From the NCBI RefSeq assembly GCF_024502345.1, contig NZ_JALDNN010000001.1: 64,000 bases of DNA; one strand, written 5' to 3'. How positions within the stretch are numbered: the stretch's first letter is position 1; each line of letters starts with the position of its first letter. The translations under genes and the position numbers were made by a program. Below the pieces are notes generated by a model. That model ran no database searches. It was not told where the DNA came from and worked only from the letters and a program-made list of their open reading frames with translations. Origin of the DNA: Escherichia coli. GTDB lineage: Bacteria; Pseudomonadota; Gammaproteobacteria; Enterobacterales; Enterobacteriaceae. Below are positions 1-64,000 of the stretch, one piece after another.

Positions 1-644
1 TGACCGTGCATCGCAAGCTGAGCAATCAGCTTGGAGACGTGCTGAGGTGTGAAGAACTCCCCTCCAGACTTACCGGCATTTGCCGCATAGTTAGAAATCA
101 GGAACTCGTAGGCATCACCAAACAGGTCAATCTGGTGCTCGTTAAAATTCCCCAGGTTAAGCCCTTCAACGCCTTTCAGAACGGCGGCAAGACGGCTGTT
201 TTTGTCTTTAACTGTGTTACCCAGTCGATTGCTGGTCGTATCGAAATCGGCGAACAGGCCTTTGATGTCGGCCTCGGACGGATAGCCGTAGGCAGAGCTT
301 TCTATAGCGACGAAGATACTATTTAAATCAGCATTCAGCCTGTCGTTGGTGTTCGCTTTAGCGGCAACGTTGCAGAACAGCTGGCTCGGGTAGATGAAAT
401 AGCCTTTAGTCCTGATGGCATCGTCTTTGATGTCATCGGTAATGATGCTGTCATCAAGTGCTGCATAATGTATGCTCTCATCCCCTGCTTCCATGTAGCT
501 GGAAAAATTCTCACTGATGAAGCGGTAGAAAAGTGCACCGAGTACATACTGTTTAAAATCCCATCCATCTACTGAGCCCCTGACATCATTGGCAATGGCC
601 CAGATTTGACGGTGTAGCTCTGCACGCTGTTGAAGGCTTGTCAT
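1..644 (-). CDS. hsdM: Type I R-M DNA methyltransferase subunit HsdM, 5' portion only (gene runs off the window start)
   Basis: Minus-strand frame reads [15 protein letters not shown]...; near-identical at nucleotide level to 58480..59122 of the complete hsdM; start codon (cat on + strand) at 642..644. Confidence 0.85.
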
Positions 645-847
645 TTTGTATCCTGTTGTATGATTCTTAAGTACTGTTATTGGCCCGATTTTATCGCAAT
701 TTCATATGGATGACAGGCTTTGTATGTCATGCGTTGCACTGAGAGTTCGTTTGCCCGGTTGTGTAGCCAACACTCTTTCAGTCAGGCCAGTAGAAACGTT
801 GCGCTGACGATAAATACTGAAGCCCCAATACCATCGGGGCTGAACGT

Positions 848-2725: not shown

Positions 2726-2786
2726 ATGTTATATTAGCTGGCCTATTTTAATTTATTGCGTGTCGGTAGTACAGTCTTTGCACAAA

Positions 2787-3116
2787 CTAATTTATGCAAT
2801 GGAAAAGCTGACGGCTCGGTTTGTGTTTTTCATTCGGGTAGACTCGCATTGCGGATGCACAAAGTGATGAAACCTGTCTTGCTATATTTTTACCGAAGTT
2901 AACAAGAAGGCCGTGCTTTATTTTTTCACCCTCTGCCCTGATGCTGATGATAAAGCTGAACTGATATACGATTACCTCAATGAGGTCATTGCCAAATGTT
3001 ATAATGGCGGCGTTGTTTATTTCATGTTCATAATCCCTCAGGTCAGTGTTAAGTCTTGCTGTTGCATCTACAAGTGCGTATTCTTTATCGATAATCATAA
3101 CTTTCTCACTTATCAT
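2787..3116 (-). CDS. hypothetical protein (109 aa), paralog of 60147..60482
   Basis: ORF co-directional with and 40 bp downstream of the WYL regulator gene; conservative substitutions versus its paralog; no strong SD, and an overlapping + strand ORF exists, so strand assignment is tentative. Confidence 0.45.
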   Translation of the reverse strand: MISEKVMIIDKEYALVDATARLNTDLRDYEHEINNAAIITFGNDLIEVIVYQFSFIISIRAEGEKIKHGLLVNFGKNIARQVSSLCASAMRVYPNEKHKPSRQLFHCIN

Positions 3117-3156
3117 GTTAATGTGATTTAATCATCACTAATAATATGTTGTGATT

Positions 3157-3870
3157 TTAATTACGATTATTCGTCTGTTTACTCCCGTAATGCATTATCT
3201 TATGAATAATGTTCATGTGGGGTAAGGCTTCCATAAAGTCAGACTGTTCAATCAGCGAAATGAGTGTGTTATCGATCTCAAACGTTGTATCCGGTAATAC
3301 CTCAACCAGCCTGATTCGGGACAGGGAAATAACGAACACGCCCGATGACGTACATCCGGCAAGAAACCACTCCGCATGGCTGCAAAGCAGACGGTAGGGA
3401 TGAACGGTATGGCTGACGTTTTCGTCGGTTCTGATACGCACCTGGGTCTGGTTAAGTATGGCGAGCGTCAGTCTGCTGAAATCACCGAAAAGGGTGGGTT
3501 TCTGGCGCGGCTCCGGTAGCATAATCCTGTATGGCGAGGGACGTTCCCCGTCAAGCATCAGGCTCAGTAGTTTGGCATCCATCGCGGGTAACAGACGGTC
3601 AAGATGCAGCAACCTCGCCAGTATCTTCATATCCCGTTCCGTGCGGCGACGAAAGTAATGTGAGGCAAGCTGATACACGCCGTTGCTCTGTTCAATATCA
3701 AGGTAGGTCAGACGGACGTTGAAATCCCGTCGCAGCGTTCGCGTCGTCACTCCAAATTCTTCTGCCAGCGTCCCGATATGCAGCTTTTCACCCTGAAACA
3801 AACGGCTCAGGATGATGGAAAGGCGGGTTGCCAGTCTGTCATGTTCGTTTTCTTGTGTTATCAGCGTCAT
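3157..3870 (-). CDS. HTH-WYL domain transcriptional regulator (YfjR/BrxR-like architecture)
   Basis: 237 aa; N-terminal HTH (LAEEFGVTTRTLRRDF) and central W-x-L-type motif (HAEWFLAG); differs from paralog 60523..61236 at about 3 residues. Confidence 0.6.
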   Translation of the reverse strand: MTLITQENEHDRLATRLSIILSRLFQGEKLHIGTLAEEFGVTTRTLRRDFNVRLTYLDIEQSNGVYQLASHYFRRRTERDMKILARLLHLDRLLPAMDAKLLSLMLDGERPSPYRIMLPEPRQKPTLFGDFSRLTLAILNQTQVRIRTDENVSHTVHPYRLLCSHAEWFLAGCTSSGVFVISLSRIRLVEVLPDTTFEIDNTLISLIEQSDFMEALPHMNIIHKIMHYGSKQTNNRN

Positions 3871-3972
3871 ACATCATTTCCGAATTTAGCCGGGAAATGA
3901 TGCCAGCAGTAGCGGACAGGATTTGTCCGCCCTCTGAAGTTTTTTAAAGTCTGAATACCTTAAATGTAAGTG

Positions 3973-4288
3973 CTAAACGTCAGTATTCTCAGGTGAATAA
4001 AGATGCTTCTGGCGCATGTAGGCAATAAAAATGCAGGATGGTAGCGTCACCCGGTATGCGGGACCGGCTAAATCAATCAGCAGCCAGAGAGAACTGAGCA
4101 CCCAGCCCACGGGACCGGCAAAAGCGCCCATGGTACGCGTCAGCATGGCATTTCCTGCAACGGTCAGCCCTCTGCCTAACAGGGCTTTCGCCACACCATT
4201 TGTGACAACAAGTGCCATCTGATAGGCCGCAAACCCGGATGTTTTAATCCCCGCCTGGATTGCCATGGTCAGCAGCTCCGGCGTGGGA
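3973..4288 (-). pseudogene. 3' fragment of the 249-aa module protein (paralog of 61339..62088), truncated at a recombination junction
   Basis: Nucleotide homology to 61339..61660 ends abruptly near 4288; only the C-terminal ~100 codons remain. Confidence 0.6.
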
Positions 4289-4289
4289 T

Positions 4290-4562
4290 TGCTGTATCGC
4301 AGACGATACCGAGCAGGAGATACCAGCCATCATCAAGTGCGGTGACGTATTCCGGGTTAGCCAGTGCCACTGCCAGCAGCGGGTCTTCGGGGAGTGTGTC
4401 ATCGTGGTTGAGATGCCAGAGCAGGGTTCCCGTTTCGTTCCAGAAGGCGGTAAACAGGTCGATATCATCGACAGGGCCAAGGATTTCATTGCTGAGGGCC
4501 ACCAGTGCGGAGGCGGGCAGGTTGAGAAGGGGAAGACTGGTGGGAGTCGTGAGTTTAAACAT
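4290..4562 (-). pseudogene. 5' fragment of an unidentified gene fused to the junction at ~4288
   Basis: Start ATG at 4562 (MFKLTTPTSLPLLNLPASALVALSNEILGPVDD...); reading frame runs into the junction and ends in non-homologous sequence. Confidence 0.3.
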
Positions 4563-5081
4563 GATTATCTCCATAAGTAATTGATTCATATTGATAATAT
4601 GTTTTCAAATGACTTTTAGTTACATTTTTTTTACGTTGTTTGCTTATTTTGGATTATGTCCTTAAATTTAGTAGTGGGCTGGCGTTAAATCCCGTTTTTT
4701 TTCCGATTTGCAGCATTTTGTAAGCAAATTAGCATGAGCTGTTTTAACTGAAAATGAGAGAAGGCTTGCGCACAATTGCTATTGATTTTCTTACTTATTT
4801 TCTCAATCACAAAACGCCTTAAATAGTTCAAAAAACAATCAACACCCCATAATCGATATTATTTATGGGGAGAAACGACGTTTAAGCCTGAAAGTGGGGG
4901 AGTGGCACTTTCAGGAGATTAAGGAGGCAAACAGGCCTCTTTAACGCGTGTTTTTCTCACCAAAATGTCAGAGTCGGTGATTTGCACTTCAGTATTTCTG
5001 CCAATACTATTCGCTCCATGTGCTGGCCAGCATCTAACTCAATACCCTTAATCTGTATTAATTGAGCGAGATGTATGCATT

Positions 5082-6404
5082 ATGAAACCCGATAGTTCTT
5101 TAAACCAAATAACGCAGACAATGAAACGGAATGATGTTGATTCTGTGGATAGTCGCTTTTTTGAGTCAGCGCAAAACATGAAAACCAGCGTTGACGTTGA
5201 AGATTGCTGCGTTGAAGTGATGGTTCGACATCACAGCCCAAAGAATCAAAGAGAGGCATTCACTAAAGCTTTTTTTGATGAGTGTAAAATCCGTGCAGTA
5301 CAAACTGGCCGGACTATCGAAGCCAGCGATACAAAATGTACCGGGCTTAAGGCTATATTCCACTCATCCGGACGCATTAAGTTTATTGTCCGCAAAAGTA
5401 TTCGCGGAAAGAATGTTTACGTTGCAGTAGGAAGTTACCCTGAATTTTCCATTAATAACGCAAGGGAACATGCCTTTAAAATAATTCAGGAGCTTAAGGC
5501 TTCCGTTGAGACTTATGGTGAGCGTTTTCTTACGCACAGCAAAATAACGTTTAATGAACTTGTGGAACAGTATGTGAAATGCGTACTTAACACGGGCGTT
5601 AAGCGTTCAGCTAACACCGACCTTTCTAAGATCCGTAAATACCTGCGCCCTCTTCTCGGTGACAAAAAGCTGGCAGGTATGACGGAGGCAGATGTTCTGA
5701 GCTATCTACACGATCTCGATCTTAAGCCTGCCACACGCAACCGCCACCTGGCGCTCATTAAAGCGGTCTTTACCTGGGCTATACGCATGGGATACACCAG
5801 CCGCTCTCCGGCGCTTTATATCAAAGCGCTGCCTGAAGTGACGTCAGATCGCCGCGCCATGGATGACTCCCAGCTTCAGCGCTGGATGGAAGTCTGTGAG
5901 TGCTGGCGTAATGGTAAACCCGATCATGAAGCCCTTGCTCTGCTCATGTTCCTTGCCCTGACGGGGCTGCGTCTGGGGGAAACCCGTCACCTTCGTCTTG
6001 AAGATGTGGACTGGAGCCGCAAGGTTATCACCCTTCGCCATACCAAAAACGGCAAACTCCGCCGTGTACCGGTATGTGATAAGGCTTTCGTTCTTCTGAC
6101 AGAACAGCGTCAGCATCTGGGTGATGAAGGCTGGGTATTTCCGGGCAAGGGGACCGACAATCCGGTTTCTGAGCCGCGTCGCCTGCAAAAACGGCTTTGT
6201 GAGGCTGCGGGTATTCCACCGTTCACCATCCATGAGATGCGCCATACCTTTGCGACAAAACTCATTGAGAGCGGGGCCGACATTCACACCGTCAAAGACT
6301 TACTGGGCCACAGCACTATCAAAGTGACGGAGCTTTACTTGCACGCTTCCCCGGCGCGTTACCACGAAGCTGTTAACCGGGCGATGAATGTTTTTCCGGC
6401 CTAA
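5082..6404 (+). CDS. tyrosine-type site-specific recombinase (phage/island integrase)
   Basis: 440 aa; catalytic-domain motifs GLRLGETRHLRLEDVD, HEMRHTFAT and LLGHSTIKVTELYLH (R-H-R-Y signature). Confidence 0.8.
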   Translation: MKPDSSLNQITQTMKRNDVDSVDSRFFESAQNMKTSVDVEDCCVEVMVRHHSPKNQREAFTKAFFDECKIRAVQTGRTIEASDTKCTGLKAIFHSSGRIKFIVRKSIRGKNVYVAVGSYPEFSINNAREHAFKIIQELKASVETYGERFLTHSKITFNELVEQYVKCVLNTGVKRSANTDLSKIRKYLRPLLGDKKLAGMTEADVLSYLHDLDLKPATRNRHLALIKAVFTWAIRMGYTSRSPALYIKALPEVTSDRRAMDDSQLQRWMEVCECWRNGKPDHEALALLMFLALTGLRLGETRHLRLEDVDWSRKVITLRHTKNGKLRRVPVCDKAFVLLTEQRQHLGDEGWVFPGKGTDNPVSEPRRLQKRLCEAAGIPPFTIHEMRHTFATKLIESGADIHTVKDLLGHSTIKVTELYLHASPARYHEAVNRAMNVFPA

Positions 6405-6476
6405 ACAGAATTCCCCCTCAGGCAAGTGAGTTCTGCGCTTTACTGCCTGTGGTTCACATTCAAAAGGAACCTGTAA

Positions 6477-7172
6477 ATGAATAATAAATCAACACCATCC
6501 CCCTTGACTACAACGACCCCCGCTCGTTTTGCCTGCAGGAAATTAAATGCATTTCTGGCTCGTCGTGCTCTTCATATGAAGGTGGTAAGAAAAAACCTGA
6601 ACAAGGCTGCTGCAATCGACATCGATCTCGATGACATTTCTAAGTGCGGATGCCGTGATGGTCTGCCTGAAGGCTTTGTCAATACTGCAAAAGGGCTTTT
6701 CTATTATGAAGGAAAAAAATGGTACCAGTTAAGCTCGACCCCCATTCTCCCTGTCTACAGGCATTATTCTGATTGTAAAACGCGCAATATGGGCGTCGAG
6801 TTGATGACTATCAACCATGCTGGAGAGTTCGCCTGTGCTGATGTCTCATTAAGTGATGCAATGGTAAAACCTGATCACGTCATGGCTTCTCTGGCGGGCA
6901 AAGGTTTTGGTATCTCCCTGACGATAAAGTCTAAAGAGCTTCTGGTGCAATTCTTACAGGTGTGTATGAAGAAATCGCTGGAATTGCCTACTTATCTTGT
7001 CGCAGATTCGATGGGTTTTGTGCCTGGCAACAAAGCATTTCTTCACGGCAGTATACCTATCGCGCAGCACCTTTTGGAATTTGACTATTTGATTCCGGCT
7101 TCCCGTGTTCCACGAGGGCTTGTCGAGTCGGGAACGCTGGATGACTGGAAAACGATGGTACCTGTGAAATGA
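6477..7172 (+). CDS. hypothetical protein, possibly 3'-truncated island gene
   Basis: 231-aa ORF directly downstream of the integrase; its 3' end overlaps an opposite-strand ORF, suggesting a deletion junction. Confidence 0.35.
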   Translation: MNNKSTPSPLTTTTPARFACRKLNAFLARRALHMKVVRKNLNKAAAIDIDLDDISKCGCRDGLPEGFVNTAKGLFYYEGKKWYQLSSTPILPVYRHYSDCKTRNMGVELMTINHAGEFACADVSLSDAMVKPDHVMASLAGKGFGISLTIKSKELLVQFLQVCMKKSLELPTYLVADSMGFVPGNKAFLHGSIPIAQHLLEFDYLIPASRVPRGLVESGTLDDWKTMVPVK

Positions 7173-47649: not shown

Positions 47650-49517
<1,868 letters not shown>

Positions 49518-50013: not shown

Positions 50014-50689
50014 GTACTGACGGGGTGGTGCGTAACGGCAAAAGCACTGCCGGACATCAGCGCTATCTCTGCTCTCACTGCCGTAAAACATGGCAACTGC
50101 AGTTCACTTACACCGCTTCTCAACCCGGTACGCACCAGAAAATCATTGATATGGCCATGAATGGCGTTGGATGCCGGGCAACCGCCCGCATTATGGGCGT
50201 TGGCCTCAACACGATTTTCCGCCATTTAAAAAACTCAGGCCGCAGTCGGTAACCTCGCGCATACAGCCGGGCAGTGACGTCATCGTCTGCGCGGAAATGG
50301 ACGAACAGTGGGGATACGTCGGGGCTAAATCGCGCCAGCGCTGGCTGTTTTACGCGTATGACAGGCTCCGGAAGACGGTTGTTGCGCACGTCTTCGGTGA
50401 ACGCACTCTGGCCACACTGGAGCGTCTTCTGAGCCTGCTGTCGGCCTTTGAGGTCGTGGTATGGATGACGGATGGCTGGCCGCTGTATGAATCACGCCTG
50501 AAGGGAAAGCTGCACGTTATCAGCAAGCGTTACACTCAGCGCATTGAGCGACATAATCTGAATCTGAGACAATATCTGGCAAGGCTGGGACGGAAGTCAC
50601 TGTCGTTCTCAAAATCGGTGGAGCTGCATGACAAGGTCATCGGGCATTATCTGAACATAAAACACTATCAGTAAGTTGGAGTCATTACC
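50014..50689 (+). mobile_element. IS1, 5'-truncated copy (lacks left inverted repeat and start of insA)
   Basis: Match to IS1 begins inside insA (TACTGACGGGGTGGTGCGTAACGG) and continues to the right end ...GAGTCATTACC at 50689. Confidence 0.85.
50171..50674 (+). CDS. insB: IS1 InsB
   Basis: 167 aa, a few substitutions relative to the 27476..27979 copy. Confidence 0.85.
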
Positions 50690-50781
50690 CGGAGTAACTT
50701 GTCAGAAACATCAATCTTCGTCATCATTTCAAAGAAAAATAATTAGTTAAAGCAGTCCGGGCTGATTGCCCGGACTGCTTA

Positions 50782-52044
50782 CTATTTTAATGGATTGTTA
50801 ATCTTTGCATATTCAAACGGACTGATACCCTTCTCCCGGTTCGCATCCAGAAAATCGGCCCACCATTGCAACATCAGTCGCCGTTCTTCCAGATGTTCTG
50901 CTTTATGGATATACGCAGCACGTACACCATTACGCTCCTGATGGCTCATCTGACGTTCCACAGCATCGCGGGACCACAAACCTGATTCAATCAATGCACT
51001 GCACGCCATCGCCCGGAATCCATGGCCACAGACTTCCTGGGTTGTGTCATACCCCATCACCCTCAGGGCTTTATTTACAGTATTTTCACTGATTGGTTTA
51101 CGCGGGTCATGTGCACCCGTAAATATCAGACCATTTTCACCTGCCCATGTCTGAAGTTCTGTCAGTATGGCTACAGCCTGTTTGCTGAGTGGCACAAGAT
51201 GTGGTGTTCGCATCTTGGAGCCCCGGTGTGAGAATTTTACGCCGGGCAGAGGTTCGCGTTCGGCTGGAATAGTCCACATGGCATTGTCAATATCAATTTC
51301 AGACCACCGGGCGTATCTGAGTTCACTGGAACGAATAAAAACCAGTAAATTCAGCGTAACGGCAAGCTGGGTGACAGGTTGCCCCTTGTAACTGCTAATA
51401 CGCGACAAAAGTTCAGGCAGGCGAGAAAGATCAAGAGCGGGGCGATGCTGGCGTTTTACAGTGGTCAATGCGCCAGCCATATCCAGAGCAGGATTATATC
51501 TGATGATGCCAGACTGTACGGCATAACGCATTACAGCAGATATTCTTTGCTGCAGACGACTGGCGATTTCATAAATTTGTTTAGCTTCTGCGGCACGAAC
51601 AGGGATAAGCAGGTCCGGGGTACGGAGTGTTGTGATATCCCGGTTGCCGATAAAGGGGAAAACGTGTGTCTCGAGGCTTTTGAGTACTTTATCGCTGTGT
51701 GATTGTGCCCATTGTTTATTACTGGCATGCCAGCGTCGTGCAATATGTTCAAAAGAGAGTTGTAAATCAGGGACTACTTTTTTAGCTCTTTTTTGTTCGC
51801 AAGGGTCAACCCCCTCCGAAATCAGTTTTCGGGCCTCATCCCGTTTTGTACGAGCTTCGGAGAGAGAAACTTCCGGATACACACCAAGTGCCAGGGTTTT
51901 CTCCTTACCCAGAATACGATAACGGAGACGCCAGTAACGGGAACCATTAGGATGAACCAGCAGGAACATGCCGGCCCCGTCAGTGAGTTTATAAGCCTTG
52001 TCAGTGGGCTTTGCAGCCCGGATTTTTGCGTCAGTCAGTGCCAT
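50782..52044 (-). CDS. P4-type tyrosine integrase (tRNA-associated genomic island integrase)
   Basis: 420 aa, MALTDAKIRAAKPTDKAYKLTDGAGMFLLV... N-terminal arm-binding domain and catalytic R..HGFR..Y core; adjacent to a tRNA-Phe 3' fragment. Confidence 0.85.
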   Translation of the reverse strand: MALTDAKIRAAKPTDKAYKLTDGAGMFLLVHPNGSRYWRLRYRILGKEKTLALGVYPEVSLSEARTKRDEARKLISEGVDPCEQKRAKKVVPDLQLSFEHIARRWHASNKQWAQSHSDKVLKSLETHVFPFIGNRDITTLRTPDLLIPVRAAEAKQIYEIASRLQQRISAVMRYAVQSGIIRYNPALDMAGALTTVKRQHRPALDLSRLPELLSRISSYKGQPVTQLAVTLNLLVFIRSSELRYARWSEIDIDNAMWTIPAEREPLPGVKFSHRGSKMRTPHLVPLSKQAVAILTELQTWAGENGLIFTGAHDPRKPISENTVNKALRVMGYDTTQEVCGHGFRAMACSALIESGLWSRDAVERQMSHQERNGVRAAYIHKAEHLEERRLMLQWWADFLDANREKGISPFEYAKINNPLK

Positions 52045-52241
52045 AGTTCAGCCTTCTGAATGCGTTAAAGAGGGTACAAATTCTGTCGAACTGGGGTATA
52101 CCCGCAATTATACCCACACAATGGGGTTGATGTGGGGGGAATCTGGTTGAGTTCGGTAGAATTGATTTGGAGGCAGAACGCTTAAATTGTGGCGTTCTGA
52201 AACGAAAAACGGACCTCCGTGGAGGTCCGTTGATATGAATT

Positions 52242-52290
52242 TGGTGCCCGGACTCGGAATCGAACCAAGGACACGGGGATTTTCAATCCC
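52242..52290 (-). repeat. 3'-terminal 49 nt of tRNA-Phe (island attachment-site repeat), not a complete tRNA gene
   Basis: Minus strand reads GGGATTGAAAATCCCCGTGTCCTTGGTTCGATTCCGAGTCCGGGCACCA, matching the anticodon-loop-to-CCA part of recalled E. coli tRNA-Phe; match stops abruptly at 52290. Confidence 0.75.
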
Positions 52291-52567
52291 TTTAAAAGAG
52301 CCCAAACGATCCATCAGCACTAACAGTTTTTTACTGGTTTACCTTGAGAAAAATGTTTAAGTTTGGTTCTTCATGACTTAAGTATTGCTTAAATACGGCG
52401 TTTCGAAGCTACCAGAATCCTACCATTATGAGCCTATGCCCATAGAAGAGAAATTATCTCCCGTTCTCGCGATTCAATGACTAAAAATCAGACGGTGCAG
52501 GCTTTTAGATACTGATATTATATCTTTTGGGTAAAGTATTAATCTCTGTTGAGATAGGCTCTTAGCC

Positions 52568-52906
52568 CTAAAATAGCCGAGCAGCAAACGCCAAAACAAC
52601 AATACTGACATTACCATTAACTGTCGCGATAGTTCTGAGTCGGTCGTCTTTCAGGGTTTTACCGTCAAATGTTGCGATGGTGCGGAGTCGATCGTCTTTC
52701 AGGGTCTTTCCATCAAAGGTAGCGATGGTGCGGAGTCGGTCGTCTTTCAGGGTTTTACCGTCAAAAGTTGCGATGGTTCTGAGCCGGTCGTCTTTCAGGG
52801 TTTTACCGTCAAACGTTGCGATGGTCCTGAGTCGATCATCTTTCAAGGTCTTGCCATCAAAGGTCGCGATAGTCCTGAGTCGATCGTCTTTTATAGTTAC
52901 GCTCAT
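52568..52906 (-). CDS. tandem-repeat protein: five identical 16-aa units (KDDRLRTIATFDGKTL) plus a degenerate sixth
   Basis: 48-bp DNA units differ from each other only at synonymous positions; AGGAGA SD before the second ATG; about 215 bp downstream of hsdR on the same strand. Confidence 0.6.
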   Translation of the reverse strand: MSVTIKDDRLRTIATFDGKTLKDDRLRTIATFDGKTLKDDRLRTIATFDGKTLKDDRLRTIATFDGKTLKDDRLRTIATFDGKTLKDDRLRTIATVNGNVSIVVLAFAARLF

Positions 52907-53127
52907 AAGCATTCTCCTGTGATACGTCCGTTCAGCACTTTACCATCCAAAATAAAGCACTGGTTTCTGTAAGTTCTGGGCGCTAATCATTTGAATATGC
53001 GTTTAAAATCCATCCAGTTAGCATTAACATTAACCAGCGCTTCATCGATCATAACAGGTCTGATGCAGGTTAAAAGATACAATCTTACCTATAAATTGCG
53101 GTAGCGCATTGCTCTGTTATCTGGCAT

Positions 53128-56100
53128 CTAGAGGTGCCCTCCAACCCCTTTAAATTTTTCGATAAACGCCCCAATTTTCTGGAATACGGTCTGCTTTTTC
53201 GTTTTGTACTGAGGATTCAGCGGACTGAGCTTTGGTAGCGTCTCATTTAGCTCAGTGCCATTTTCGGTAGCATACTCCCGTTTGAGTGATGTGCGGATAT
53301 AGCGCCTTGCAGCCTCTTCATTGAGGTTTTCTTCCTTAATCAACGCCTCTGCTTCCCGTTGCTGTTCACGCTGAGCATAGGTAAAGAATGCATCAATGAT
53401 ACTGGCCTTGTCCGGCATGTCATCAAGGTTAGTTTGCTGAATAAAGTCAACAATCAGACCTTCTTTGGCACGGTTGCCCAGACTTGAGCGGATTAAGCGT
53501 CTGACCTCTTCAGTCAGGGCTTCTTTACCTTTTTTCTCTCTGTTGTGGTCGAAAATCAGGCCAAGGATGTAATCCAGGTTAATTTCCTGCGACTTCAGCA
53601 GGTCAATTTCAAACACCACGTCATCCCAGTCTGTGGTTGATTTATCCCTGTCGTTTGATGCTTTTTCGCGTCGCTGCCAGTCCCGGATATCATTGTATGC
53701 TGAGCGATAGTCCTGAACTTTACGTTCTGCCGGGAGACGAATGGTTTGTAATTCAGCAAATTTTTCATCATCCACATAGTGCTCTGCTTTAAAGGTTTCT
53801 ACCGCTTCCGGGTCACTAATATCAACCTTCTGCAGGGCTTTCAGCGTGGCAAATTCATCATAGTTTTGCAGGATGTTTTCTGCCCGCAGATATTCACCAA
53901 ACAGTTTGACGAAGGCTTTTTTCTCTTTTTCACTGTCGATACTGGCAGGGTCAGGGAAGCGCTGCTCCAGCTCCGAAACAACAGCCATAAAACCTCGTTT
54001 AGCCTCACCGGTTGCCGCATCGGTAAAGCCCTGCATGTACTCTTCGTAGCTTTTTTCCAGCACCACATTCTTGGTGTTTTTGTCGCCAAAAAGTGTGATG
54101 GCATCAATGGTCGGACGCTCCAGGTCCCTGAAAGTCACGATATTGCCGAAGGTTTTGGTTGCATCATAGATACGGTTGGTGCGTGAGAATGCCTGCATCA
54201 GACCGTGATAACGCAGGTTTTTGTCAACGAACAGAGTATTGAGCGTCGGGGCATCAAAGCCGGTTAAGAACATTCCCACCACGATGAGAAGGTCGATATC
54301 CTGATTTTTCACTCGTTGAGCTAAATCGCGGTAGTAGTTCTGGAAGCCGTTACTGTCGGTACTGAAATTGGTTTTAAAGTGGTTGTTATAGTCATCAATG
54401 GCTGAATCCAGGAATTCCTTTGCGCTGCTGTTCATTGCGCTGGTATCAAAGCTTTCGTCAGTAATATCACCAATGGCGCTTTGCTCTTCATTAGCAGCAA
54501 AAGAGAAGATGGTTGCCACACGAAGACGTTTATAGCTGCCAGATTTCTTCTCAGCTTCTTCCTGTAGCATTTTAAATGTCGTGTAATAAGCTTTTGCCGC
54601 GTCCACGCTGCTCACTGCTAACATGGCATTGAAGCCTTTTGCTCCCGGGAAGGTACGATGCGTTTTCTGGCGGAAGTTATTGAGAATGTATTGCGTTATT
54701 TCCTGGATACGCAGTGGGTGCAGAAAGGCCTGCTGGTTTTCAGCCGCGCTGAGTTTTTTCTCGTCTGTTTCCGTTTCAAGGGACTTAAACTGTGGGCGGA
54801 CATCGTTATAGTCCACCTTAAACTTCAGCACTTTTTCATCACGAATCGCATCAGTAATTACGTAAGAATGTAATTCACGCCCGAAGACGCTGGCGGTGGT
54901 TTCTGCCCCCAGTGCATTTTCCGGGAAAATAGGCGTACCGGTAAAACCAAACTGATAAAAGCGTCTGAATTTCTTTTTGAGGTTTTTCTGGGCCTCACCA
55001 AACTGGCTGCGGTGACACTCATCAAAGATAAACACCACCTGCTGCTGATAGACGGGCAGGTCAGCTTCGGCTTTCATCAGGTTATTGAGTTTCTGAATGG
55101 TTGTGACGATAATTTTGTTATCGTCCTTATCCAGGTTTCTTCTGAGGCCAGCTGTATTATCCGAACCATTCACACTGTCCGGAGAGAAGCGCTGATACTC
55201 CTTCATGGTCTGGTAATCGAGGTCTTTCCTGTCGACCACGAAGAAGACTTTATCAATAAAGTCCAGCTCGGTTGCCAGTCGTGCGGCCTTAAAACTGGTC
55301 AGGGTTTTTCCTGACCCTGTGGTATGCCAGATAAACCCGCCGCTTTCGGGTTTTGACCAGTTCTTCGCTTTAAAAGAGCTGTTGATTTTCCAGAGAATGC
55401 GCTCAGTGGCCGCTATCTGATAGGGACGCATGACCAGCAGTGTCTGGCTGCTGTCAAACACGCTGTAATTAAACAGAACATTCAGCAGGGTATGCTTCTG
55501 GAAGAAAGTGGCGGTAAAGTCCTTCAGGTCCTTTATCAGGGTGTTATCCGATTTCGCCCAGTTCATGGTGAAATCAAAGCTGTTTTTATCCCGCTTAGTG
55601 GTACTGGCAAAGTACCGGGTATCAGTCCCGTTGGAAATCACGAAGAGTTGCAGGTATTTAAACAGGGAGTTATCGCTGTTAAAGCTTTCCTTGCTGTAAC
55701 GGTGTATCTGGTTAAAGGCTTCACGAATCGCCACGCCGCGCTTTTTGAGTTCGATTTGCACCAGTGGCAGGCCGTTGACCAGAATGGTGACGTCATAACG
55801 GTTAGCGTGTGAGCCGGTCTGCTCAAACTGCTGAATGACCTGCACCTTATTGCGCAGCAGGTTCTTTTTATCTATCAGATAGATGTTTTCCAGACGACCA
55901 TCATCAAACGTAAAATCACAGATATAGTCGATATGGATTTTACGGGTTTTGTCCAGGCTGCTGTCACTGGGGCTGTCCAGATACTGCTCTGCGAAGCGCC
56001 GCCATTCACTTTCGTTAAACTCCACACCATTAAGACGCTGAAGCTGGTCCCGCACATTCGCCAGCATCGCAGTCGGTGACTTAACGGAGATAAACTCATA

Positions 56101-56244
56101 CCCCTGATTAAGAAGGTCCTGAATCAGCTCCCGCTCAAGGTCCAATTCGCTCTGGTAGCTGTCACCGGTATCCATAACTTTTGTGTATTTATCAAGGACG
56201 ATAAAGTTATTGGATTCAGCAATGGTGTGTGTCTGTTGTGTCAT
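53128..56244 (-). CDS. hsdR: Type I restriction enzyme R subunit (Type IC, EcoR124-like)
   Basis: 1038 aa; Walker A GSGKT, DEAH-box [10 protein letters not shown]-terminus [20 protein letters not shown] resembles recalled EcoR124I HsdR. Confidence 0.9.
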
Positions 56245-56307
56245 GGAGCATCCTGTGCGTCATCTGGCAAAGTCCGGAAGGGTATCAGAAGCATCTTCCG
56301 GCATTCA

Positions 56308-56352
56308 TAAAACCTGATACCGGACGGGTGAGAACAAACCCTGCCGGTATCA
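56308..56352 (-). terminator. stem-loop in the hsdS-hsdR intergenic region (possible hsdMS terminator or regulatory structure)
   Basis: 8-bp inverted repeat GATACCGG...CCGGTATC followed by a T-rich run on the minus strand. Confidence 0.35.
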
Positions 56353-56360
56353 ATGGTCCG

Positions 56361-57569
56361 TCAGTTGCTAGTTGTTTCGTGCTTCGGGAAGCTGAACAAC
56401 AAGTCGCGATAGTACTCGTACTGCTTCTGGCGTAGTTCTATTTCACGGGGTAAGCCTTCGGTGATAGAGCTTGTTAATGTGTCGAATTTATCGAGTATGG
56501 TGACAATCCTAACTTGCTCTGACTTTGAAGGGATTGGTAGTAAAAGGTCCTCCATTTGTTTTTTGGATACGGCAGGAATACCTCCTTTCTGCTGAATACC
56601 CGTTAATTTGGTCTCGGATTGTTTCAGATAGTAATAGACATACATCCAATGCAACTGTTCAGTGCTTCTAACAGAGATGGAATAGCAACTATTGCCTGCC
56701 CAGTAAGGAGTGGAACTCTTATTTACAAATCCTGCATTTGCTCCACGCGCACTCACAATAATCTTATCGCCATCATTGTTGAAGTCTTCGTAGTAACCTG
56801 TAGGAGTCCGCCCTCCGTTGTAGACCGGATAATCTGCGTCAGGATTCTGCTTGTCCTTACGGACAAACGCACCAATTGTAATTATTGCTACTTCCCCCAG
56901 ACTCTTCCACTCAACACTCCCCCCCTCAAAACTCAGCAATTGGTTACGATAGTAATTGTACTGCTTTTTACGCATGGTAAGCTCAGCTGTAAGCTCAGCT
57001 GTAAGAGCAGTAAATTTATCCAGAATTCGGACGATTTCAGACTGGATGGTCAGAGACTTTTCAGGATTTTCCGGGCAAGGAATGGGGGCTTTATATGCTG
57101 AAATCATTTGAAGATTCAGCCCACCACGCCCGCTGTTCCCAGATGATATCTGACGTAGATTATCATACTGGGTTTCCAAAAAGTGGAAAATATAATCTGA
57201 ATTGATCTTCCGCTCATCAAATGTAATGGCTGCAAGTGATTGATTGGTGGTTAATTTAATGCGGGTTCTTGCTACTTTACCACGAGTTTTACCCTGACCT
57301 GCTAATGCCATAACAATGGAATTTTCAGGAACAAATTTAGCACTTGAGTTATTTAATCCATCCTCAGTAATGAATGTCTCAGTTTCTTTGATGGTTTTTA
57401 AATTTACTTCACCTGAACTCATCCAGGGGATAGTTCCATGCTCCCAATATTCTGTTTTTTTAGTATCAGGGGTGCCACCAGAATAAATTTTTTTTGCAAC
57501 CTTACCGAGAGGGAACCACTCAACCTCAATCCCCTCCAGCAGTTTTTCCAGATAATTTAGCTTACTCAT
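56361..57569 (-). CDS. hsdS: Type I R-M specificity subunit (Type IC), two TAEL repeats in the central conserved region
   Basis: 402 aa; conserved central ...[27 protein letters not shown]... and C-terminal ...[37 protein letters not shown]; 4-bp overlap with hsdM. Confidence 0.85.
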
Positions 57570-59122
57570 GCCTGCGCCTCGTAGCCTTCAATTTCTGCCA
57601 CAATCGCATCAATGTCTTTGCGTAACTGGTCGATTTTGCTGACCGTGGTTTTAAGCTCAACATTCAGTTCGGTGATATCGACGATTTCACGGGTATCTTT
57701 TGCTTCGACGTAGCTACTGACAGACAGATTGTAGTCATTACCAGCAACAGTCTCTAATGGCACCGTTTTCGCCAGATGGTCAGTATCTGCCTTACTGTTG
57801 AACACATCCATAATCTGCTTAATATGACCATCAGTCAGGATATTGTTATTGGTTTCTTTCTTAAACAACCCGCTGGCGTCAATAAACTGAACGCGGGTAT
57901 CTGTTTTGTGCTTGGACAACACTAGTATGTTAACGGCAATGGTGGTGCCGAAGAACAGATTTGGTGCCAGAGAAATCACCGTTTCAACATAGTTGTTGTC
58001 GACCAGGTACTGGCGGATTTTCTGCTCTGCTCCGCCACGGTAGAAAATACCGGGGAAGCAAACTATTGCTGCACGCCCTTTAGCTGACAGGTAGTTTAGT
58101 GCATGTAGCACAAACGCAAAGTCAGCTTTTGATTTCGGGGCCAGTACGCCAGCAGGAGCAAAGCGCTCATCGTTAATCAGGGTCGGATCATCACTACCAA
58201 TCCACTTAACCGAGTACGGTGGGTTAGAAACAATCGCATCGAACGGTTTTTCATCGCCAAAGTGAGGCTCAGTCAGGGTATTCCCCAACCTGATATCAAA
58301 CTTATCGTAGTTGATGTTGTGCAGGAACATATTCATACGCGCCAGGTTAAACGTCGTATGATTTATCTCTTGTCCGAAAAAACCTTCTTCAATGATATGA
58401 TTATCAAAGTGCTTCTTCGCCTGAAGCAGCAGTGAGCCAGAGCCTGCGGCAGGGTCATAGATTTTGTTGACGTGAGTCTGACCATGCATCGCAAGCTGAG
58501 CAATCAGCTTAGAGACGTGCTGTGGTGTGAAGAACTCCCCGCCAGACTTACCGGCATTCGCCGCATAGTTTGAAATCAGGAACTCGTAGGCATCACCGAA
58601 AAGGTCAATCTGGTGCTCATTAAAATCCCCGAGCTTTAGCCCCTCAACGCCTTTCAGAACGGCAGCGAGGCGGCTGTTTTTGTCTTTGACGGTGTTACCC
58701 AGTCGATTGCTGGTCGTATCGAAATCGGCAAACAGACCTTTGATGTCGGCCTCAGACGGATAGCCGTAGGCAGAGCTTTCAATAGCGACGAAGATACTGT
58801 TTAAATCAGCATTCAGCCTGTCGTTGGTGTTCGCTTTAGCGGCAACGTTGCAGAACAGCTGGCTCGGATAGATGAAATAGCCTTTAGTCCTGATGGCATC
58901 ATCTTTGATGTCATCGGTAATGATGCTGTCATCAAGTGCTGCATAATGTATGCTCTCATCCCCTGCTTCCATGTAGCTGGAAAAATTCTCACTGATGAAG
59001 CGGTAGAAAAGGGCACCGAGTACATACTGTTTAAAATCCCATCCATCTACTGAGCCCCTGACATCATTGGCAATGGCCCAGATTTGACGGTGTAGTTCTG
59101 CACGTTGTTGAAGACTGGTCAT
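57566..59122 (-). CDS. hsdM: Type I R-M N6-adenine DNA methyltransferase subunit
   Basis: 518 aa; catalytic NPPY motif (SNPPYS) and AdoMet-binding region [10 protein letters not shown]. Confidence 0.9.
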
Positions 59123-59710
59123 TTTTATCCTGTTATCGATTCTTGGTTTCGGCTATTGCTGCGATTTTATCGCAATTTTACTTCTTTGACAGGTTTGAGT
59201 GATGCCTGATAGCCTCCCCAATGAAGGTTAAAATGGTTAATGAAATGTACAGAGAATCAATCGGATATGCTGTTTCGATTTCTGGAGCATCATTAGCGGT
59301 GTTTAGGGGCAGTTCATTACATTTCTGACCTTGTATAGATATGCCGTGATGAAATAAACGTTCACAGCCATCATCTGATCGGTGTGCAACAAAGGCGTCA
59401 TTCATTAAATACGCAGAGAGCCTGACTTATTGCGTCAACGGGTGAGTTACAATGTTGAATCTGGTAACGCCAAAACTGTGTAATTATCTACGCTAAATCA
59501 TTTCTGGTTAGCGTGACCGACGCCGGCGGTCTTAAGATGTACAATTCTTACTGTCTCCGAATGAATTTTATTTATTCAAACAGACTTGGGTGATATTATT
59601 ATCAAGTGAAAATGCCTGTTACCTACCTTGATGATATATACAGTGTTTTTACAGATGAATTTATATGTTTGTAATCAATGCGTGAGTTTGATGTTTTTAA
59701 GGTTAGTTAA

Positions 59711-60031
59711 ATGAAACAGCTATTGGATTTTATAATTGGAAGTTGTGTGGATAACAGAACCAAATTTCAGTTGCTTGCAGTTTGTTATCCAAAATGTAAG
59801 GATGATGAAGTGATGTTGATTTTGCGCTGGAGGGTAGCTGATTTGTATGCGCATGAACTGGAAGTTCAGAATTATCTTTTTAGAGAGCTGGAAGGTATCA
59901 TAGAGAAAATCACGGGCCTGCCTGAAACCTATTTTGTATCAAGCTATAAATCACTATTGACCGATGATTTTAGAGAACTCACAGCAGCGGGGGTTGATGT
60001 TTGTAAGTTTATTATGGAAAACAAAGGTTAG
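59711..60031 (+). CDS. hypothetical small protein (106 aa) in the variable slot between hsdM and the WYL module
   Basis: AT-rich ORF with AAGG SD 8 nt upstream; divergent from hsdM; occupies the position held by the GmrSD-like gene in the left-hand locus. Confidence 0.4.
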   Translation: MKQLLDFIIGSCVDNRTKFQLLAVCYPKCKDDEVMLILRWRVADLYAHELEVQNYLFRELEGIIEKITGLPETYFVSSYKSLLTDDFRELTAAGVDVCKFIMENKG

Positions 60032-60146
60032 TTGGATAAGAACCAACACATTTTCAGGTTCTGTTCTGGCTGAGGAACCTGAATATTCAATCAATGTGTT
60101 AGTTCTATTTTTGATGGTTAGATTTAAATGTGATTCTTTTGCGGTG

Positions 60147-60482
60147 TTATACTGCTGTTATGCATCTAAAAAGCTGACGGCTTTGTTTATGTTTTATGTT
60201 CGGATAGATTCTCATCGCAGCTGCACAGAGAGGTGAAACCTGCCTTGCTATATTTTTACCAAAGTTAACAAGAAGACCATGCTTGATCTTTTCACTATTC
60301 GTTCTGACTTTGATGACAAAGCTGAACTGATATACGATTACCTCAATGAGGTCATTGCCAAATGTTATACTGGCAGCGTTGTTTATTTCATGTTCATAAT
60401 TCCTCAGGTCAGTGTTAAGTCTTGCTGTTGCATCTACAAGTGCGTATTCTTTATCGATAATCATAACTTTCTCACTTATCAT
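60147..60482 (-). CDS. hypothetical protein (111 aa), paralog of 2787..3116
   Basis: Last gene of the module operon; conservative substitutions versus its paralog. Confidence 0.45.
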   Translation of the reverse strand: MISEKVMIIDKEYALVDATARLNTDLRNYEHEINNAASITFGNDLIEVIVYQFSFVIKVRTNSEKIKHGLLVNFGKNIARQVSPLCAAAMRIYPNIKHKQSRQLFRCITAV

Positions 60483-60522
60483 GTTAATGTGATTTAATCA
60501 TCACTAATAATATGTTGTGATT

Positions 60523-61236
60523 TTAATTGCGATTATTCGGTTGTTTTGCCCCGTAATGCATTATCTGATGAATAATGTTCATGTGGGGTAAGGCTTCCAT
60601 AAAGTCAGACTGTTCAATCAGCGAAATGAGTGTGTTATCGATCTCAAACGTTGTATCCGGTAATACCTCAACCAGCCTGATTCGGGACAGGGAAATAACG
60701 AACACGCCCGATGACGTACATCCGGCAAGAAACCACTCCGCATGGCTGCAAAGCAGACGGTAGGGATGAACGGTATGGCTGACGTTTTCGTCGGTTCTGA
60801 TACGCACCTGGGTCTGGTTAAGTATGGCGAGCGTCAGTCTGCTGAAATCACCGAAAAGGGTGGGTTTCTGGCGCGGCTCCGGTAGCATAATCCTGTATGG
60901 CGAGGGACGTTCCCCGTCAAGCATCAGGCTCAGTAGTTTGGCATCCATCGCGGGTAACAGACGGTCAAGATGCAGCAACCTCGCCAGTATCTTCATATCC
61001 CGTTCCGTGCGGCGACGAAAGTAATGTGAGGCAAGCTGATACACGCCGTTGCTCTGTTCAATATCAAGGTAGGTCAGACGGACGTTGAAATCCCGTCGCA
61101 GCGTTCGCGTCGTCACTCCAAATTCTTCTGCCAGCGTCCCGATATGCAGCTTTTCACCCTGAAACAAACGGCTCAGGATGATGGAAAGGCGGGTTGCCAG
61201 TCTGTCATGTTCGTTTTCTTGTGTTATCAGCGTCAT
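60523..61236 (-). CDS. HTH-WYL domain transcriptional regulator (paralog of 3157..3870)
   Basis: 237 aa; same motifs as the left-hand copy. Confidence 0.6.
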   Translation of the reverse strand: MTLITQENEHDRLATRLSIILSRLFQGEKLHIGTLAEEFGVTTRTLRRDFNVRLTYLDIEQSNGVYQLASHYFRRRTERDMKILARLLHLDRLLPAMDAKLLSLMLDGERPSPYRIMLPEPRQKPTLFGDFSRLTLAILNQTQVRIRTDENVSHTVHPYRLLCSHAEWFLAGCTSSGVFVISLSRIRLVEVLPDTTFEIDNTLISLIEQSDFMEALPHMNIIHQIMHYGAKQPNNRN

Positions 61237-61338
61237 ACATCATTTCCGAATTTAGCCGGGAAATGATGCCAGCAGTAGCGGACAGGATTTGTCCGCCCTC
61301 TGAAGTTTTTTAAAGTCTGAATACCTTAAATGTAAGTG

Positions 61339-62088
61339 CTAAACGTCAGTATTCTCAGGTGAATAAAGATGCTTCTGGCGCATGTAGGCAATAAAAATGC
61401 AGGATGGTAGCGTCACCCGGTATGCGGGACCGGCTAAATCAATCAGCAGCCAGAGAGAACTGAGCACCCAGCCCACGGGACCGGCAAAAGCGCCCATGGT
61501 ACGCGTCAGCATGGCATTTCCTGCAACGGTCAGCCCTCTGCCTAACAGGGCTTTCGCCACACCATTTGTGACAACAAGTGCCATCTGATAGGCCGCAAAC
61601 CCGGATGTTTTAATCCCCGCCTGGATTGCCATGGTCAGCAGCTCCGGCGTGGGATTGCTGTAGCCTGTCTGCAATTCTTCCGCCACGGTCTTTAGCTGAG
61701 CGGGTGTCATCTTCTCAAGGCTTTTCTCCAGGATCTTCATCAGCAGATTCATTTCAATGGTTTCAACACTGGATTTGCTGTTGTAGTTCACCTTCATTTT
61801 ATCGCAGGCATCGGTAAGAATTTCCCGGTACAGCACCCCTTTACCCCAGCGGAGCAGCGTGGCAAAGCTGTTCGCCCCAAACGTCTGAACTTCGGCGGCA
61901 ATGGCATCCCAGTAGCGCGGGTGGTTGGGCTTGTGTTTTTTATACTGAGGATCATAGGTCAGCGTTTCCGTGATGCGTGCCAGTCCGTCTTTCGGATCGC
62001 AGATAAGCACAGAAACCAGTAAATCCAGATCGTCACGATGACAGTGGCGCAGAAACTCAAGGTCGGGGTCGTGTCGGTAGGTAGCCAT
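61339..62088 (-). CDS. hypothetical protein (249 aa) with Gly/Ala-rich hydrophobic C-terminal segment
   Basis: GAGGTGA SD; C-terminus ...GVAKALLGRGLTVAGNAMLTRTMGAFAGPVGWVLSSLWLLIDLAGPAY looks membrane-associated; first gene of the module. Confidence 0.55.
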   Translation of the reverse strand: MATYRHDPDLEFLRHCHRDDLDLLVSVLICDPKDGLARITETLTYDPQYKKHKPNHPRYWDAIAAEVQTFGANSFATLLRWGKGVLYREILTDACDKMKVNYNSKSSVETIEMNLLMKILEKSLEKMTPAQLKTVAEELQTGYSNPTPELLTMAIQAGIKTSGFAAYQMALVVTNGVAKALLGRGLTVAGNAMLTRTMGAFAGPVGWVLSSLWLLIDLAGPAYRVTLPSCIFIAYMRQKHLYSPENTDV

Positions 62089-62231
62089 ATTTCACCTCAT
62101 TGCAGATATTGGACCTGACAGTTTAAGGAAGCACCCGGACAGGGTTTGTCCGCCTGAAAAACAAAAAAGTAAAAAAAAACCTACCCGAAAGCAGGTTTCT
62201 GTTCACCGGATGGAGGTATAACGCGTCGGGA

Positions 62232-62618
62232 TTACTTTCCGCGCCATTCCTTTTCCACTTTATCCGCAAAGGCATCGCACTGCCGGGCATATTCCGGGTT
62301 ATACAGAAGCTCCGACTGCGAAAGCTGCATGGCGGTCATGCTGCCGTTACGGGCGTTCGATTCGAGCCAGGTTCTGCCATAGGTTTGGTTCATCACCTGA
62401 AGTACCCTGTTGAATACCGGTCCGTTGAAGCGGGCATTGAGATTAACGCCTTTTACCTGAAGGCCGCTGTCACTGGTCTGGGTCAGGCGGGTGGAGTACA
62501 TCGCGCAGAAGGTCGAATTGGTAATCATCTGAGCGTCAGCCTGCTCGTCGGCGAACGCGCTGTGGCTGAAGGCGGAAAGCAGAATTGCGGCGGTTAACAG
62601 TTTTAAAGTTTTCATCAT
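62232..62618 (-). CDS. secreted small protein (128 aa) with cleavable signal peptide
   Basis: MMKTLKLLTAAILLSAFSHSAFA then ADEQ...: typical Sec signal peptide with AxA cleavage site. Confidence 0.55.
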   Translation of the reverse strand: MMKTLKLLTAAILLSAFSHSAFADEQADAQMITNSTFCAMYSTRLTQTSDSGLQVKGVNLNARFNGPVFNRVLQVMNQTYGRTWLESNARNGSMTAMQLSQSELLYNPEYARQCDAFADKVEKEWRGK

Positions 62619-62692
62619 GTTCCCTTATGGATTGAAAAGCGGAGACAGCCTGCCATACGGGGTGGTCAGGAGATGTCCGGCAGAGAAAAAAG

Positions 62693-62932
62693 TCAGGGTT
62701 TCAGCGAGGGAGCCAGTCGCCAGCGGTGAGGGCCAGCGGATTCCAGCACAAAGGCCAGTTGAGCGAGGTCCCGTCTTGCTGTGCGGGGAGAGACGTCAAA
62801 CTGCCGGATGATGTAGCGAACAGATATTGTCTGACCGTAAAACAGGGCCATGGTCAGCCGGATAAGCCGTTCTCCCTGTCCGGTGACACGTTGCCTGCAA
62901 CGGCTGGCTTTCATCGTTGCCATACGCGCCAT
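62693..62932 (-). CDS. short HTH protein (79 aa) resembling the N-terminal domain of the YfjR-like regulators
   Basis: GERLIRLTMALFYGQTISVRYIIRQFDVSPRTARRDLAQL parallels the HTH of 7578..8228; no WYL-like segment follows. Confidence 0.35.
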   Translation of the reverse strand: MARMATMKASRCRQRVTGQGERLIRLTMALFYGQTISVRYIIRQFDVSPRTARRDLAQLAFVLESAGPHRWRLAPSLKP

Positions 62933-63375
62933 CGGTCCCCTTTCTGAAAAGAATCGAGGTGTCTGGCAAGCCAGATATCAGGGCACGAATCGCCGGTAAC
63001 GCAGCGGGCAGTAAACCGGTGGCAGTTAAAGTCGAGCAGGCTATAAGGATAGCGCTGACCCACTGCCGCCTTTGCCCGTTCAGCGGCCTGTGCACAACCC
63101 TGAGGCGTCAAATCCATACAGTCGGTATACACCGAGATAGCGGAGTTCCAGCCATCGAGCCGGTCAAGAAACCCTTTGGCCTTACTTTTGATAACGGTTC
63201 CATCGCCATCAAGATGAACAATATCGCCGTTACCCACATAGATACCGCTGTGTGCGGCAAGGCCAAAAAGCAGTTCGCACTGCACGATACCACCGTAAGC
63301 CGGTTCATCGACGCAGGAGAGAATGCAGTTATCGATAAATGAATCCACGAAGTTCAGCAGCAGAAGCCGGTACAT
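62911..63375 (-). CDS. LRAT-like (permuted NlpC/P60 papain-fold) protein
   Basis: Start placed at MYRLLLLNF (AAGGAA SD); His motif AHSGIYVGNGDIVHL precedes Cys motif FNCHRF, the LRAT-type order. Confidence 0.5.
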   Translation of the reverse strand: MYRLLLLNFVDSFIDNCILSCVDEPAYGGIVQCELLFGLAAHSGIYVGNGDIVHLDGDGTVIKSKAKGFLDRLDGWNSAISVYTDCMDLTPQGCAQAAERAKAAVGQRYPYSLLDFNCHRFTARCVTGDSCPDIWLARHLDSFQKGDRWRVWQR

Positions 63376-63433
63376 AACATTCAGTTCCTTACTACGGGGG
63401 AGAGGGGGGATGCGGGGGAAACGTTGTGAACAC

Positions 63434-63862
63434 TCAGCTTTGCCACAACGTACGGACCGTGAAAACCCCCATATCGTGGTAAGCCATAAAGTTACTTTCC
63501 CACAGCGACCAGAACTCACGGGCGTCGACATGAGAGATATCGCCACAACGGGAAAGCCACGTGTATTGTTGCGTCCAGCTCACATCGACATCTTTTTCAA
63601 GCTCAGGCCATGGATGCCCTGCATAGTGAAAATCGGTGACGTAATCGAGCTGCCAGTCTTCTCCGGCAGGGATGAGGCGTATTTCGACCGGATGCCAGCC
63701 GCCCTTTTCCGGTGAGTATTCAGGGTCACGAAAGTTAATGGTTAATCCGGTGATGGGGTGACGATGAGGCGGTTTTTGCGCGAGGATATCCAGAAGCAGT
63801 TGGGTGAACGACCGGGAGAGCGGCAGCACATAGCCGCCCTGCAATATTACGGGTGATGACAT
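63434..63862 (-). CDS. hypothetical protein (142 aa) immediately upstream of the LRAT-like gene
   Basis: ORF MSSPVILQGGYVLPLSRSFTQLLLDILAQKPPHRHPITGL...; Trp-rich; no motif recognised. Confidence 0.45.
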   Translation of the reverse strand: MSSPVILQGGYVLPLSRSFTQLLLDILAQKPPHRHPITGLTINFRDPEYSPEKGGWHPVEIRLIPAGEDWQLDYVTDFHYAGHPWPELEKDVDVSWTQQYTWLSRCGDISHVDAREFWSLWESNFMAYHDMGVFTVRTLWQS

Positions 63863-64000
63863 AGTGAATTTCCTGATTTTTGGTTAACAGAACACAGAAA
63901 AAGCGGGGTTAGTCCTGGCTGAGCGTAGCAAGCTGCGTCATACGATGCTGCCAGTCGGCATAGCAGCGGTGCATAAAGAGTCTGCTGCTGTCCGCTTCGA

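Follow-up and report, generated by a model that had tools for sequence, protein, structure and literature searches.

The families into which Type I restriction-modification systems are divided have three defining criteria, namely complementation, antibody cross-reaction and sequence (PMC3874165). The prototype of the Type IC family is the pair EcoR124I/EcoR124II (PDB 2w00, 7bst), which is located on plasmid R124 and has its genes in the order hsdM, hsdS and hsdR. The TAEL sequence of the specificity subunit HsdS is repeated twice in EcoR124I, where the gap within the target is 6 bp, and three times in EcoR124II with its gap of 7 bp (PMC3874165). The textbook route to new Type IC specificities is a swap of recognition domains within the central conserved region of HsdS (PMC3874165). 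EcoprrI is another member of the family, encoded on the E. coli chromosome and having three TAEL repeats (PMC3874165). Here we describe the hsdM-hsdS-hsdR genes found in a stretch of 64,000 nucleotides of Escherichia coli contig NZ_JALDNN010000001.1 (assembly GCF_024502345.1), which was analysed as a whole and is called the window below. We suggest that these genes very probably encode a complete and apparently functional Type IC enzyme of the EcoR124I family, carried as the cargo of a tRNA-Phe island, and that its HsdS combines two recognition domains which are otherwise found with other partners.

The restriction genes belong to the EcoR124I family

An earlier reading of the window, made from its letters alone (the sequence-only reading), described a complete Type IC operon with a 4-bp overlap of hsdM and hsdS and with hsdR 116 bp further downstream. 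The list of open reading frames (ORFs) agrees with this layout exactly. The genes follow each other on the minus strand in the order hsdM, hsdS, hsdR; the first two share positions 57566-57569, and the 116 bp between the hsdS stop codon and the hsdR ATG contain no ORF. All three proteins match the PADLOC models of Type I systems (REase_I, Specificity_I and MTase_I). The NCBIfam scores of HsdR (TIGR00348, 733 bits vs a cut-off of 285) and HsdM (TIGR00497, 640 bits vs 243) are far above the thresholds, and this arrangement of genes did not come about by chance. The word ‘operon’ is a loose term here, because hsdR is probably transcribed separately.

The resemblance to EcoR124I, which had been noticed for the 1038-aa HsdR and for the conserved regions of HsdS, is borne out along the entire proteins. 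In the search against solved structures the proteins of EcoR124 are by far the best matches. HsdR aligns over residues 1-1037 with HsdR of EcoR124I (2w00_A) with 2125 bits, and the two proteins, both of 1038 aa, are 91.0% identical over 970 scored residues. HsdM aligns over residues 1-517 with the M subunit of EcoR124II (7bst_D) with 1089 bits and 93.6% identity. For both subunits identities were counted ungapped on the printed alignments. The lengths of the other subunits are also close to those of EcoR124, with 518 vs 520 aa for HsdM and 402 vs 404 aa for HsdS. The nuclease residues D151, E165 and K167 of the PD-(D/E)xK nuclease (EcoR124I numbering) are present in HsdR, together with the GSGKT (at 310) and DECH (at 408) motifs of the DEAD-box motor. 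In HsdM the SAM-binding motif DPAAGSG (at 223) and the NPPY motif (at 300) are intact. The N-terminal, the central (TAELTAEL) and the C-terminal conserved regions of HsdS all align with the S subunit of EcoR124II (7bst_A).

The gene order hsdM-hsdS-hsdR with hsdR set apart is reportedly a criterion of the Type IC family. Hence, the Type IC assignment holds on every feature that can be judged in silico, since the similarity of HsdR and HsdM, the gene order, the HsdS regions with their TAEL repeats and the motifs all fit. With more than 90% identity to the prototype, the subunits are expected to complement, and exchange with, those of Type IC enzymes and to cross-react with antibodies against them.

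The specificity subunit is a chimera with a rare combination of recognition domains

The two recognition domains of HsdS comprise approximately residues 21-160 and 223-352 and are located between the Type IC conserved regions. Both are unlike those of EcoR124I/II; only a distant alignment (56 bits) is found between the second recognition domain of EcoR124 and the first domain of HsdS from the window. Since both domains differ from those of EcoR124I, the target of the enzyme cannot be GAA N6 RTCG. The structures in the PDB have too little in common with these domains to infer the half-sites of the target. The central region contains two TAEL copies, as in EcoR124I, which originate from a perfect 12-bp tandem of ACAGCTGAGCTT. 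By analogy with the EcoR124 enzymes the number of TAEL repeats would set the length of the spacer, and therefore two copies predict a non-specific gap of 6 bp between the half-sites of the bipartite target.

The identity of HsdS was scored region by region across its 120 best homologues and shows a strictly modular pattern. Domain 1 is 99-100% identical in many proteins of Klebsiella, Citrobacter, Salmonella, Enterobacter and Serratia, with an unrelated domain 2 (22-28%). Domain 2 is, in turn, 99-100% identical in many proteins of E. coli, Klebsiella, Salmonella and Mixta, and there domain 1 is unrelated (16-24%). Both domains at 99-100% occur together, among these 120 closest matches, only in the protein of the window itself (P0001). 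The homologues P0002 and P0003 have domain 2 in common with it and a domain 1 which is only 81-85% identical. Residues 1-166 are identical to those of P0015 from Citrobacter portucalensis and of P0021, and residues from about 188 to 402 are those of P0010 from Salmonella Havana save for one mismatch; in both P0015 and P0010 the partner domain is unrelated to that of the window HsdS (24-26% identity). Judged by these alignments, HsdS is chimeric and unites two recognition domains that are both widespread. The match to P0015 stops at residue 166 and that to P0010 starts at about 188; the crossover thus falls within the central conserved region, immediately ahead of the TAEL repeats.

The exact protein is recorded in one E. 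coli genome (WP_256632718), on a contig of 4.74 Mb, and on three short metagenome contigs, and clustering at 90% leaves it as a singleton. The E. coli assembly carries the records MCQ7033491-MCQ7033493 (WP_256632717-19). The search of the literature for the protein accessions found nothing. The locus offers a clean natural case of recognition-domain exchange in the central conserved region of a Type IC HsdS. The coordinates of the hsd genes and of the elements around them are collected in Table 1.

Table 1. Features of the window that are discussed in the text
Feature	Position	Strand	Description
hsdM, N6-adenine methyltransferase subunit	57566-59122	minus	518 aa; TIGR00497, PADLOC MTase_I, match to 7bst_D
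hsdS, specificity subunit	56361-57569	minus	402 aa; PADLOC Specificity_I; conserved regions match 7bst_A
hsdR, restriction/translocase subunit	53128-56244	minus	1038 aa; TIGR00348, PADLOC REase_I, match to 2w00_A
hsdS-hsdR intergenic region	56245-56360	minus	116 bp; putative location of an hsdR promoter
TAEL-TAEL tandem repeat in hsdS	56979-57002	minus	perfect duplication of the 12-bp unit ACAGCTGAGCTT; HsdS residues 190-197
Candidate hsdM promoter CTGTCA-17-TAAAAT	59164-59192	minus	42 nt upstream of the hsdM ATG
49-bp direct repeat of the tRNA-Phe 3' end	52242-52290	minus	distal att boundary of the restriction island
Restriction island (‘island B’), part within the window	52291-64000		runs on past the right edge; backbone 96-98% identical to relatives
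P4-type integrase of the neighbouring island	50782-52044	minus	belongs to the 7159-52241 island, outside the restriction island
Second Type IC hsdM, 5' part	644-1	minus	214 codons; part of the truncated island copy, window 1-7164

The restriction genes are very probably the cargo of a tRNA-Phe island

The sequence-only reading placed the locus beyond a tRNA-Phe att repeat and called this consistent with horizontal acquisition. The repeat is indeed there: it consists of 49 bp that match the 3' end of tRNA-Phe exactly, and zero copies of it are expected by chance. Neither ARAGORN nor Rfam at the gathering threshold finds an intact tRNA anywhere in the window, and no second tRNA-Phe fragment occurs in it with up to 3 mismatches allowed.

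The missing parts of the island are seen in relatives. Its backbone is 96-98% identical to islands located at pheV in E. coli AREA_C483 and ET846 and at pheU in G3/10. In AREA_C483 an island of 23.5 kb is delimited by two copies of the 49-mer, one at its far end and the other inside the pheV tRNA called by ARAGORN. In ET846 the island adjoins pheV. In G3/10 it stands at pheU, and after it come the repeat, the same integrase and a BREX island, an order which the window shares; the identity is 97.1% over window positions 50015-56498, which cover the integrase, the repeat, the beta-flower gene and hsdR. According to the annotation of the relatives, the island genes within the window are those for a beta-flower protein, HsdR, HsdS and HsdM, an HTH regulator, a DUF3944 protein, an LRAT-like protein and a DUF2787 protein. 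In these relatives the full tRNA-Phe and the integrase are found 11-12 kb past the point that matches the end of the window. We infer from this layout that in our strain the full tRNA-Phe and the island integrases lie about 11-12 kb beyond the right window edge. Comparison with the relatives thus defines an integrative island of about 23 kb, which inserts at the tRNA-Phe genes pheV or pheU. A literature search on tRNA-Phe islands that carry Type I systems did not bring up this island.

The restriction module is more diverged among the relatives than the backbone of the island. The islands of AREA_C483, ET846 and G3/10 have the same 49-bp att repeat and an hsdR that is 95-97% identical, but their hsdM is only 86-96% identical and their hsdS recognition domains are unalignable with those of the window. 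In G3/10 and ET846 a DUF262 gene adjoins hsdM, unlike beside the complete hsdM of the window.

The locus is not ancestral. Of the 5426 complete E. coli genomes, just 62 contain 80% or more of the region, and its distribution is thus patchy. The GC content of the region is 0.41-0.47, compared with a chromosomal value of roughly 0.51 in E. coli. The island bounds in the relatives, the patchy distribution and the low GC content all favour the horizontal acquisition proposed earlier. The accompanying remark that the family is best known from plasmids is true historically, but does not describe its present distribution, as in E. coli matches to the family occur at 925 chromosomal vs 646 plasmid places. 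Matches are also found on 962 PLSDB plasmids, mostly of Escherichia and Klebsiella.

Transcription of the hsd genes

We suggest that the genes are probably transcribed from a promoter upstream of hsdM. CTGTCA-17-TAAAAT is the candidate, to which conservation points: both of its hexamers are also kept upstream of the second hsdM, which is found at the left window edge. The hsdS stop codon is followed by a hairpin, and AGGA stands 8 nt before the hsdR ATG. The 116-bp intergenic region is conserved in G3/10 and ET846, and it is this conservation that suggests a second promoter within it, which would probably serve hsdR and allow its separate transcription. The promoter scan finds no consensus hsdR promoter in the 116-bp gap.

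Proposed mechanism and alternative explanations

By analogy with EcoR124I we propose the following sequence of events. One HsdS and two HsdM subunits would assemble into a methyltransferase (M2S), which would modify one adenine in each half of the bipartite target. With the addition of two HsdR subunits the complex (R2M2S) would become an ATP-driven translocating endonuclease, cutting unmethylated DNA far from the target. The half-sites would be set by the two recognition domains, which are unrelated to those of EcoR124I, with a gap of 6 bp between them. The enzymatic activity is predicted from the 91-94% identity to EcoR124I, and the N6 gap from the two TAEL repeats. Unlike EcoR124I/II, whose genes are on plasmid R124, the genes would be the cargo of the chromosomal island of about 23 kb, the member of the island array nearest to tRNA-Phe.

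Some results weigh against this interpretation. Neither the full tRNA-Phe nor the integrase of the island itself is within the window. The hairpin between hsdS and hsdR is not significant (z = -1.45), and the promoter and terminator sites found by scanning the region are no commoner than in shuffled sequence, so that no promoter is convincing. One alternative, in favour of which nothing was found, is that the system comes from another Type I family (IA, IB, ID or IE) and that its likeness to EcoR124I is superficial. The ID and IE prototypes were not directly compared; still, the full-length identity of 91-94% to the subunits of the Type IC prototype leaves no room for another family, the M subunit of the Type IA enzyme EcoKI gives only 68 bits with HsdM vs 1089 for that of EcoR124, and both the hsdM-hsdS-hsdR order and the TAEL repeats are characteristic of Type IC, so that we give this alternative practically no weight. 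It is equally hard to believe that the locus is of the EcoprrI type, where a Type IC system masks the anticodon nuclease PrrC and acts in abortive infection. Like our system, EcoprrI is of Type IC and encoded on the chromosome of E. coli (PMC3874165), but according to published work its prrC is embedded in the prr operon. The prrC gene sits between hsdM and hsdS. Here their overlap of 4 bp leaves no space for a gene between them, and the sole other gap has 116 bp and no ORF; hence, the PrrC-type arrangement was rejected. The window locus thus differs from EcoprrI in having no prrC as well as in its two TAEL repeats instead of three.

We also consider a decayed system improbable. An inactive HsdR or an HsdS unable to assemble would leave at most an epigenetic methyltransferase, and disrupted hsd genes are indeed common in genomes (PMC3874165); moreover, hsdS of the related island in ET846 is frameshifted. 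In the window, however, all three ORFs have full length in comparison with EcoR124 and the nuclease, helicase and methyltransferase motifs are intact. The second hsdM at the left edge differs from the complete one almost only at synonymous sites: 212 of its 214 in-window codons encode the same amino acid, vs 93.7% identity in DNA, which points to purifying selection on the hsdM family in this genome. We therefore prefer the intact Type IC enzyme over a remnant.

The restriction family in question is one of the best studied, and the system is an ordinary member of it. Its genes are already annotated as HsdR, HsdS and HsdM in public records, and at 90% identity the clusters of HsdR and HsdM have 12,681 and 4,629 members, respectively. 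The locus is in this respect one more specificity allele in a very large family, with little import beyond the strain. Its individual features are the rare combination of recognition domains and the location in a tandem tRNA-Phe array together with a second Type IC system. In the strain itself the predicted enzyme would hinder transformation, and its methylation motif would appear in methylome data.

A second Type IC system in a tandem array of islands

The sequence-only reading also mentioned a second copy of hsdM starting at the window edge. This copy is found at the left edge: it begins with an ATG at position 644 of the minus strand and runs off at base 1. It belongs to a left copy of the island, which has an internal deletion of 2.76 kb relative to ET846 and is cut off in a DUF927 gene at about 7164. 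Adjoining the second hsdM is a gene on the minus strand (848-2725) for a 625-aa DUF262 protein, which matches the PADLOC candidate defence family HEC-05 with 765 bits; a different segment of about 1 kb takes its place in the right island copy.

At about 7159-7172 this truncated DUF927 gene and a DUF5983-like gene, which is likewise truncated and belongs to the middle island, are fused directly to each other. Neither an att repeat nor an insertion sequence is present at this junction near 7160. It is not an att site, because the window has only one 49-bp fragment even at 3 mismatches. The window is E. coli DNA, and its segment 7159-47000 is 99.7-100% identical to E. coli strains G3/10 and C 236-04A. 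The integrase immediately left of the repeat leads a separate island which extends leftwards. From right to left, the array thus consists of the restriction island, the 49-bp repeat, an island of about 45 kb, the illegitimate junction near 7160 and the truncated sibling island, which carries a second Type IC system. We suggest that tRNA-Phe sites accumulate defence-carrying islands in tandem, and the island family seems to be a general carrier of defence genes.

It might be argued that the two hsdM copies and their odd neighbourhood reflect an assembly artefact or a recent duplication rather than two independent islands. The N-termini of the two proteins are nearly identical, they are encoded on the same strand 58 kb apart, and the junction near 7160 joins two truncated genes. 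However, the hsdM copies have diverged to 93.7% identity in DNA and their neighbours differ, with the DUF262/HEC-05 gene beside the left copy and the other 1-kb segment beside the right one, which speaks against both an artefact and a recent duplication. In addition, the sets of E. coli relatives matched by the two copies differ, and in the finished genome of G3/10 there is a tandem array in which integrase, repeat and restriction island follow each other as they do here. We thus regard an artefact or a recent duplication as very unlikely and retain two independent islands.

The two Type IC systems are in direct orientation, about 58 kb apart. A tentative idea, which we hold to be rather unlikely, is that they work as one pooled system. 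The subunits are interchangeable within the family, and hence the pools of HsdM and HsdR could be shared by the two HsdS proteins. If so, recombination between the two hsdS genes could yield up to four specificities via exchange of the recognition domains, and recombination between the hsd repeats of about 94% identity could lead to deletion or mobilisation of the intervening 58 kb of island DNA. An exchange between the two hsdS genes could likewise have produced the chimeric HsdS.

Other genes of the array

Between the att repeat and hsdR the minus strand contains a 114-aa ORF (52568-52912) with about 7 tandem repeats of 48 nt (16 aa). Its annotation in G3/10 and ET846 reads ‘5-fold beta-flower protein’, and it has no NCBIfam or PADLOC match.

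Islands with the LRAT/DUF2787 backbone are also found elsewhere in G3/10. A sibling island near pheV (826000-838000) encodes several TIR-domain proteins and an ABC-three-component system, and in the pheU array of this strain the BREX-1 system is located on another sibling island with this backbone.

The middle island of the window is without the 3.5-kb toxin-antitoxin/antirestriction segment that G3/10 has. An antirestriction gene, suspected in the middle island from G3/10, was rejected because of this deletion. Between 29 and 42 kb the middle island has segments of high GC content (0.57-0.63). It also carries, on the plus strand, a gene for a 1016-aa autotransporter of the AIDA-I/MisL type (43486-46536). 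Near the integrase end of the island, among IS30 and IS1 copies, there is a full-length Rfam match (140 bits) to the Hfq-binding small RNA isrC on the minus strand (49025-49147).

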